Part shown: one piece after another, positions 9,370-9,423 of the stretch
Layout of the letters: each line of letters starts with the position of its first letter
Numbering within the stretch: the stretch's first letter is position 1
Origin: a virus
Length of the DNA stretch: 64,000 nucleotides
Virus genome (UHGV): UHGV-0370399
Reading direction: 5' to 3' (one strand)
Notes under the pieces: model-generated
The model's input: only the letters and a program-made list of their open reading frames with translations
Database searches by the model: none
Told to the model about the DNA's origin: nothing
Program-made: the position numbers and the translations under genes

Positions 9370-9394
9370 GAACTATTGCAAGTTAAAAAAGTTG

Positions 9395-9423
9395 TTGACA
9401 AAGTACTTGACAAGGTGTAGGCT
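9395..9423 (+). promoter_or_regulatory. Candidate sigma70-like promoter with A-tract upstream; part of a tandem TTGACA module conserved at 48241-48278
   Basis: AAAAAAGTTGTTGACAAAGTACTTGACAAGGTG; -35 TTGACA 9395-9400, -10 TAGGCT 9418-9423. Confidence 0.4.

Follow-up and report, generated by a model that had tools for sequence, protein, structure and literature searches.

A conserved tandem TTGACA module in both divergent intergenic regions of a Felixounavirus genome: probable sigma-70 promoters with a second -35-like box

Two divergent intergenic regions of a phage genome each carry a near-identical pair of TTGACA boxes, which raises the question of what the module does at the two places where the coding strand switches, and why a second perfect -35-like box should lie within an apparent promoter spacer. 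The window, meaning the whole 64,000 nucleotide stretch of virus genome UHGV-0370399 that was analysed, belongs to the Felixounavirus group (Felix O1-like myoviruses). The 3-kb stretch around the module was matched by 253 phage records, and the best matches, at approximately 98% identity, were the E. coli phages vB_EcoM_ASO1A, wV8 and VpaE1 and the Salmonella FSL SP-010/012 phages. The annotated relative ASO1A (87.6 kb) has a four-block layout with two divergent intergenic regions, which in the window are placed as follows:

Intergenic region 1, approximately 9298-9544: between a minus-strand block ending near 9297 and a plus-strand gene from 9545.
Intergenic region 2, approximately 48189-48445: between the DNA polymerase gene (minus strand) and a plus-strand gene from 48446.

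According to the ASO1A annotation, region 1 is flanked on its left by a leftward block including the lysin and a tail protein, and on its right by rightward genes for a DUF5681 protein, a vWFA protein and approximately 20 tRNAs, followed by all of the structural genes. To the left of region 2 are the leftward DNA polymerase, ligase, HTH regulator, DHFR and thymidylate synthase genes, and to its right the primase/helicase and ribonucleotide reductases, continuing into rIIA/B and small early genes. For the minus-strand gene on the left of region 1 the likeliest start is the ATG at 9297 (RBS AAGGAG) and not the TTG at 9316; for the DNA polymerase it is the ATG at 48188, behind GAGGGAG, and not 48218 or 48209. 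In both genes the start given by the longest ORF is probably wrong: the stretches between the alternative starts (9295-9316 and 48186-48218) varied among relatives in the manner of non-coding DNA. Within the tRNA cluster (11580-14628), 13 tRNAs were found at the Rfam gathering score and the ASO1A record annotates more there. A hairpin (GGGTATTGACAATGTGTTTGATACCC, 11427-11452), whose loop holds the promoter candidate TTGACAATGTGT (N17 TAATAT), is located at the head of this cluster and is listed as a terminator on both strands in the Felix O1 paper (PMC3185647).

The module was TTGACA-N6-TTGACAAGGTGT, located at 9395-9418 and 48249-48272. Read as 26-mers, copy 1 was TGTTGACAAAGTACTTGACAAGGTGT (9393-9418) and copy 2 was AGTTGACAATGCACTTGACAAGGTGT (48247-48272), with identity at 23 of 26 positions without gaps and at 22 of 24 over the core (9395-9418 relative to 48249-48272). 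The original prediction of a near-identical module at two strand switches was therefore correct as to its presence, with an identity of 23/26 in place of the claimed 24/26; its coordinates and string for copy 2 were exact, and those for copy 1 began 2 nt off, the 'TTG' having been dropped from AAGTTGTTGACA. Both copies were intergenic and on the coding strand of the rightward genes, one per divergent region, and each included two hexamers that matched the -35 consensus at 6/6 positions (9395-9400 and 9407-9412 in region 1, 48249-48254 and 48261-48266 in region 2). The features of the two modules, all on the plus strand, were:

9385-9390, plus: A-tract AAAAAA, 5-10 nt 5' of hexamer 1, which we take to be a possible proximal UP-element; the run is kept in relatives and its flanks vary.
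9395-9400, plus: hexamer 1, TTGACA, proposed -35 of the rightward promoter P1 of region 1.
9401-9406, plus: linker AAGTAC, 6 nt; all 6 columns vary among relatives.
9407-9417, plus: hexamer 2 with its flank, TTGACAAGGTG, a second perfect -35-like box inside the P1 spacer.
9418-9423, plus: TAGGCT, candidate P1 -10, N17 from hexamer 1.
9428-9433, plus: AATACT, candidate -10 for hexamer 2 at N15, a possible P2 in region 1 only.
9443-9452, plus: ACTTAAAAGG block, 36 nt past the start of hexamer 2; it makes up the basal 5' arm of the leader stem-loop.
48239-48243, plus: A-tract AAAAA, 5' of hexamer 1 of region 2; AAAAAGCAAG is invariant among 23 distinct sequences.
48249-48254, plus: hexamer 1, TTGACA, invariant, proposed -35 of the rightward promoter P1 of region 2.
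48255-48260, plus: linker ATGCAC, 6 nt; 4 of 6 columns vary.
48261-48271, plus: hexamer 2 with its flank, TTGACAAGGTG; the hexamer is invariant and the final TG (48270-48271) falls where an extended -10 would be.
48273-48278, plus: TAATCT, candidate P1 -10, N18 from hexamer 1, with TGn before it.
48296-48305, plus: ACTTAAAAGG block of region 2, 35 nt past the start of hexamer 2.

The likeness between the two regions took the form of blocks in the same order, consisting of the A-tract, the tandem hexamers with AAGGTGT, ACTTAAAAGGTT (at 9443 and 48296, 35-36 nt past the start of hexamer 2) and, further 3', ACAGATA. A degenerate 26-mer with up to 3 mismatches was matched twice in the window relative to 0.00 expected in shuffles, exact TTGACA-N6-TTGACA occurred at two places only within the window, and no third full copy was found in the complete ASO1A genome (87.6 kb) when up to 6 mismatches were allowed. 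The original prediction had named an absence of further copies elsewhere as part of what would speak against function; there are indeed two full copies per genome and, given their strong evolutionary conservation, the lack of others does not refute function.

Orthologous regions were located by their flanking proteins in IMG/VR contigs and were also taken from GenBank records; they covered Felixounavirus, Mooglevirus-like and Suspvirus-like genomes with flanking proteins down to 80-90% identity. At each of the 81 loci spanning the site there was a single exact TTGACA-N6-TTGACA in the orthologous position. The 12 hexamer columns were all invariant among the 13 distinct region 1 and 23 distinct region 2 sequences, compared to variation in 6/6 linker columns in region 1 (AAGTAC, AAGGAC, AAGCAC, TTCCTC, AGCCTC, AGGGGA and AATGAC) and 4/6 in region 2 (ATGCAC, ATGTAC, ATGCGC, ATACAC, AATCAC, AATAAC, ATTCAC and AAGCAC), with Fisher p = 5e-5 and 0.005, respectively. 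The intergenic regions were highly conserved as a whole, 33/224 and 66/209 of the other columns being variable, and against that background the hexamer invariance of region 1 was unexceptional alone (p = 0.23), so that the conservation signal is the contrast between hexamers and linker. The leaders (approximately 115 nt and 160 nt) were especially conserved and variation clustered in the promoter zone, at the flanks of the A-tract, the linker, the two bases past hexamer 2 and the middle of the candidate -10s. This is the pattern that would be expected of contact hexamers with an unconstrained spacer between them, and it rules out neutral hitch-hiking of hexamer 2.

Most probably the module is a host-type promoter of the ordinary kind in which the second box is an oddity. 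Features in keeping with sigma-70 recognition included a -35 with 6/6 matches, a -10 with A2 and T6 at N17 or N18, and an intergenic location co-oriented with the downstream gene. Among relatives the candidate -10 of region 1 was TAGGCT, TAGCCT, TAAGTT or TAGTGT, with T1, A2 and T6 kept and the middle changing, and that of region 2 was TAATCT or TAGTCT after TGT or TGG at the canonical extended -10 spot. In region 1 the TG abuts the -10, outside the canonical extended -10 position, and Felix O1 has TA there. In a position-weight scan with approximate matrices, the pairings of hexamer 1 ranked first in each region (9.4 in region 1 and 9.7 in region 2) and only 56 placements in the whole window scored 9 or more. 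The P1 -10 candidates matched the consensus at only 3/6 positions in both regions, and a consensus promoter scan of both regions with a 4/6 rule listed neither hexamer, TAGGCT having been missed due to its 3/6 match. The upstream context AAAGTTG-TTGACA of hexamer 1 was also present at other single promoter candidates in the window. The suggestion in the original prediction of a shared regulatory site, as tandem promoters or an operator, is thus supported at the sequence level by conservation in three genera and by the rank of these sites as the top sigma-70 candidates.

Parts of the module have been annotated before from pattern matches, and the literature searched contains no description of it. 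In the Felix O1 genome paper, P41 corresponds to hexamer 1 of region 1, and a promoter-like sequence homologous to P41 is said to be missing between ORFs 96 and 97 (PMC3185647). Felix O1 itself (AF320576, about 63531-63563) carries the full identical module between those ORFs. The promoters in the ASO1A record, which are pattern matches only, begin at hexamer 2 in region 1 and at hexamer 1 in region 2. The Felix O1 paper recognised no phage RNA polymerase and no specificity factor, and temporal control was left unexplained by its authors (PMC3185647). End-point RT-PCR in Felix O1 placed ORFs 41, 42, 44 and 96-99 in the 25-min class (PMC3185647), although these classes are too coarse for co-regulation to be judged as the 25-min class holds most of the genome. 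Nothing in these data supports the control of an early-to-middle switch put forward in the original prediction. A literature search for Felixounavirus found no transcription-start, RNA-seq, time-resolved or promoter-mutant data.

Hexamer 2 differed between the two regions in what lies downstream. In region 1 it is followed by AATACT at N15 (score 7.7 with the approximate matrices), a pairing that is annotated in the ASO1A record, and Moogle-/Susp-like relatives have AACACT at N16. In region 2 no -10-like hexamer was found 15-19 nt downstream in any relative. The flank of hexamer 2 in relatives was AA-nn-TG, with the region 1 variants AACGTG, AAGATG and AAGCTG, and the 11-mer TTGACAAGGTG was present in three copies in the window relative to 0.07 expected. 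The third copy and a promoter on the other side of region 1 were:

44957-44947, minus (site 44929-44970): third TTGACAAGGTG, with TACCTT at N17 (44934-44929) and TTGCAA 7 nt upstream.
9341-9381, minus: leftward promoter of region 1, TTGCAA (9381-9376), N6, TTGACT (9369-9364), N17, TACCAT (9346-9341).

It is plausible that the third TTGACAAGGTG (44957-44947) is a single -35 directly ahead of the gene that starts at 44902. The module is roughly mirrored by the leftward promoter of region 1, the two forming an inverted repeat (I1, 25 nt, 72% complementary), and it is the downstream TTGACT that pairs with TACCAT (score 9.2 with the approximate matrices). Both TTGACT and TACCAT were invariant in relatives, and TTGCAA varied to TTGTAA. 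The third TTGACAAGGTG with its TACCTT and the mirrored promoter that uses its downstream hexamer suggest that hexamer 2 is able to act as a real -35. Among candidate promoters of the leftward DNA polymerase gene, the best conserved was the invariant minus-strand TATAGT at 48321-48326, which has a weak TTTTAA/TTTAAG -35 and lies where ASO1A annotates a minus-strand promoter. This candidate is to the right of the rightward P1 start, an arrangement in which the two promoters would be convergent and would give overlapping transcripts. A leftward promoter of region 2 formed by the reverse complement of the module was rejected, the minus-strand TATAAT (48239-48234) being badly spaced from TTGTCA and not conserved.

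A more distant relative, Erwinia phage vEam_S_24 (Kolesnikvirus), has the same genome layout and a polymerase that is 65% identical, and carries single hexamers in both regions (TTGACA-N17-TACATT at the corresponding position of region 2 and TTGACA-N16-TAGAAT in region 1). These single-hexamer promoters favour the upstream hexamer with a -10 at N17/18 as the basic promoter and the embedded hexamer 2 as an addition. A tandem was present elsewhere in vEam_S_24, at a non-homologous site (TTGACA-TTCCAC-TTGACA, with TAAAGT 17 nt past the first hexamer), and was kept in phiEa21-4 with a changed linker; no -10 was found for the second hexamer of the vEam_S_24 tandem. The design of a -35, 6 nt, TTGACA, 5-6 nt and a -10 therefore recurs in Kolesnikvirus. 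Since hexamer 2 is without a -10 in region 2 and in the Erwinia tandem, tandem promoters are not a general explanation. At least 120 matches to TTGACA-N6-TTGACAB-N4-TAnnnT were found in IMG/VR among the unrelated contigs listed.

The Kolesnikvirus tandem points into an ORF-free, iteron-rich stretch with TTCTAA / CTGTTA-type repeats (83.7-84.1 kb of the vEam_S_24 record), and the counterpart of tandem and iteron stretch in phiEa21-4 was at 1060-1858 of the retrieved locus, so the two may be functionally linked in this lineage. Positions 1-1400 of the window were likewise ORF-free (no ORF of 38 aa or more) and dense in short iterons, and correspond to an unannotated gap at 14.7-16.3 kb in ASO1A. 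These iterons included 22/33-nt repeats at 1-200 (GGCTATAAAGTTAC(TTCAAAGTTAC)GTAAAAAA), five CTTAACA with an exact 11-nt period at 207-263, and, at 275-1300, the reverse-complement unit (C/T)TGTTA(A/G) in approximately 25 copies that are often spaced by 10-11 nt. From its sequence, the stretch at 1-1400 looks like a replication origin or a protein-binding array.

From the observed sequence, uniqueness, position and conservation pattern of the module we infer the sigma-70 reading, the hexamer used, the start sites and any effect on timing, as follows. Each module would start the rightward unit of its divergent control region, the DUF5681 and vWFA genes, tRNAs and structural genes in one case, and the replication and nucleotide-metabolism genes in the other. 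The A-tract and the upstream TTGACA, as -35, would recruit the host sigma-70 polymerase to a weak -10 in which T, A and T are kept (TAGGCT at N17 in region 1, TGnTAATCT at N18 in region 2), giving predicted P1 starts near 9430-9431 and 48285, respectively. Hexamer 2, within the spacer at about -23 to -18, would be a second docking site for sigma-70 with its register shifted by 12 bp, as selection acts exactly over the six bases that are read by sigma region 4. In region 1 the shifted register would have its own weak -10 (AATACT), with a start near 9440-9443, and could fire as a tandem promoter. In region 2, where the shifted register has no -10, the polymerase would be held unproductively or would need a helper. 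In both cases hexamer 2 would tune P1, or set its timing, at the two units in parallel. We consider there to be an even chance that the two sites are paralogous sigma-70 modules in which hexamer 2 is a second sigma-70 docking site tuning P1 through its 12-bp-shifted register. The identity of the module as a sigma-70 promoter is held more confidently than any particular role for hexamer 2, the best reading of which is a selected second -35-like box that would serve as an alternative RNA polymerase register or an operator.

For the second of these roles, hexamer 2 and its flank TTGACAAGGTG, or the whole direct repeat, would be an operator for a phage DNA-binding protein, for example of the Xre type, and the bound protein would cover the P1 spacer and extended -10 and switch both rightward units together in time. 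This is possible, if unlikely. Conservation within the spacer is unusual for a plain promoter, TTGACAAGGTG is over-represented as noted above, the same element at both units would couple them, and an explanation for temporal control is lacking according to the Felix O1 authors (PMC3185647). The leftward unit of region 2 also encodes an HTH_3 regulator, which was the sole recognisable DNA-binding regulator found and is a candidate reader of the module:

41250-41549, minus: Xre-family HTH protein of 99 aa (Pfam HTH_3, E = 5.9e-10).

The protein has weak matches to C.BclI, HipB and HigA-type proteins and was found in 259 records of the Felix/Moogle/Susp type and in none of the Erwinia phages, co-occurring by clade with the tandems of regions 1 and 2, although this co-occurrence amounts to a single evolutionary event and the Erwinia phages keep a conserved tandem without the HTH protein. 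Dimers of the Xre/Cro type normally bind inverted repeats, whereas the module is a direct repeat with no dyad kept in relatives; an Xre/Cro dyad operator was accordingly rejected, the small palindromes CTTGACAAG and AAGTACTT (linker) of the window not being kept in relatives. In addition, the flank of hexamer 2 varies in region 1, and the invariant bases are exactly the sigma-70 -35 consensus, twice, so that reading of both hexamers by sigma-70 region 4 is the most economical account.

A different division of labour would make hexamer 2 the -35 of a factor-dependent, middle-type promoter starting at ACTTAAAAGG, with hexamer 1 belonging to an overlapping early promoter and a phage product supplying the missing -10 recognition or DNA melting. 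The distance is suitable, ACTTAAAAGG starting 30 nt (region 1) and 29 nt (region 2) past the end of hexamer 2, a normal -35-to-start distance; the would-be -10s are invariant within each region (ACTTAG in region 1, AGTGGG in region 2), and perfect -35s with poor -10s suggest a limiting step after binding. These two would-be -10s are, however, unlike each other or any known element, the genes scanned and the public annotations revealed nothing resembling a sigma, MotA/AsiA or gp55 protein, and the ACTTAAAAGG of region 1 is explained by pairing in the leader stem-loop. Furthermore, CTTAAAAG recurs elsewhere in leaders and the position of ACTTAAAAGG may therefore be coincidental, so that we regard this arrangement as improbable. 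A functionless hexamer 2, the modules being alike through copying with the second TTGACA carried along, would fit the several same-order blocks common to both regions, which are consistent with common descent or gene conversion. It is very improbable given that the linker and its neighbours have diverged freely in three genera with both hexamers invariant at both sites, and that a similar tandem is found at the non-homologous Kolesnikvirus site.

The leaders downstream of the modules had features of their own. The region 1 leader (9444-9535) was nearly invariant in three genera and was predicted to fold into a long stem-loop with a consensus of -25 kcal/mol, the base of which is ACTTAAAAGG; variation was low overall and included one compensatory pair, CCTCT/AGAGG to CTTCT/AGAAG, with a GU intermediate. 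In the region 2 leader a hairpin at 48386-48404 changed from AACGTAT-AGA-ATACGTT to TATGTAT-AAC-ATACATA in Moogle-like phages, two predicted pairs of the leader were altered on both sides, and a perfect 15-bp palindrome (AGCTTTTAAAAAGCT) was located nearby at 48361-48375. The octamer CTTAAAAG occurred 18 times relative to 5.7 +/- 2.3 expected, with six copies in the approximately 500 nt of both intergenic regions (9444, 9506, 9515 on the minus strand, 48297, 48343 and 48430), and could be part of a leader RNA structure or a protein site. An Rfam search of both intergenic regions at E of 1 or less gave no meaningful match, and window-wide it returned tRNAs only.

Several further readings of the module were rejected. 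A late promoter of the T4 type is marked by TATAAATA and has no -35, and at 9424-9431 the window reads TCTAAATA instead; TATAAATA was present at region 1 in most relatives (e.g. ASO1A), was not conserved in Moogle-/Susp-like phages, and its three copies in 64 kb were not enriched, with none heading a structural gene. The MotA box of T4 middle promoters, (a/t)(a/t)(a/t)TGCTTtA at 11-13 nt before the -10, was absent from both regions and hexamer 2 is 5-6 nt from the P1 -10. Sigma-54 elements (GG-N10-GC, with GG at -24 and GC at -12) have a 12-bp period in common with the module, but TG and GA are found at those positions, and inspection of both regions gave no match to sigma-32 or sigma-28 consensus elements. 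A host PhoB box on the opposite strand (TTGTCAA-N5-TTGTCAA) would have a period of 12 rather than the 11 of the Pho box, and its would-be -10 was not conserved.

Felix O1-type phages are widely used in Salmonella and E. coli typing, biocontrol and therapy, and the finding that both large rightward units are headed by a common, deeply conserved module provides a concrete experimental target. If the second box is a throttle or operator, it would offer a simple co-regulation of distant units through the host polymerase alone, and if it is not, these are simply two well-conserved host-type promoters. It is doubtful that the second TTGACA serves purely for regulation and is no promoter, either as a consensus -35 decoy within the spacer or as the target of a small phage protein whose specificity is like that of sigma region 4. 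Were this so, host polymerase would be held or excluded at the heads of both large rightward units, which would be a source of the temporal programme for a phage without its own polymerase or sigma factor, and the 12-bp tandem would have been reused in mirrored form in the leftward promoter of region 1 and before the iteron-rich region of Kolesnikvirus.

Among known systems, the activator sites of lambda CII and P22 C1 are TTGC-N6-TTGC repeats straddling the PRE -35 (PMC4837284). The module resembles them as a direct repeat of a TTG-containing box overlapping a -35, an arrangement that activator and polymerase can share, and differs in having a period of 12 rather than 10, TTGACA as the unit and a perfect -35, such that a lambda CII-type site was rejected; no CII-like protein was identified and this phage is virulent. 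With the C.PvuII and C.AhdI operators of restriction-modification controller (C) proteins, the tandem sites of a small Xre-type regulator which overlap the -35 and form a timed on/off switch there, the module has in common its tandem sites at a -35, yet C-boxes are palindromic (GACT...AGTC) and its element is not, and the similarity of the phage HTH protein to C proteins was marginal (E = 0.07-0.25). The strong phage early promoters lambda PL (TTGACA-N17-GATACT), T7 A1 and those of T4 have a consensus -35 and upstream A-tracts. The module is like these in its probable host sigma-70 type, perfect or near-perfect -35, AT-rich upstream sequence and imperfect -10, and unlike them in the second -35 box in its spacer and its weaker -10s (3/6). 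Overlapping or tandem sigma-70 promoters are found at E. coli gal P1/P2 and lac P1/P2, where one register can compete with the other or take its place. Unlike at gal and lac, both -35s of the module are perfect and exactly 12 bp apart, a complete candidate second promoter is found in region 1 only, no CRP-like selector is known, and the layout occurs in duplicate, at two loci, and is kept across genera. What the module would have in common with gal and lac is a pair of polymerase registers on common DNA, offset by anything from a few bases to a helical turn.
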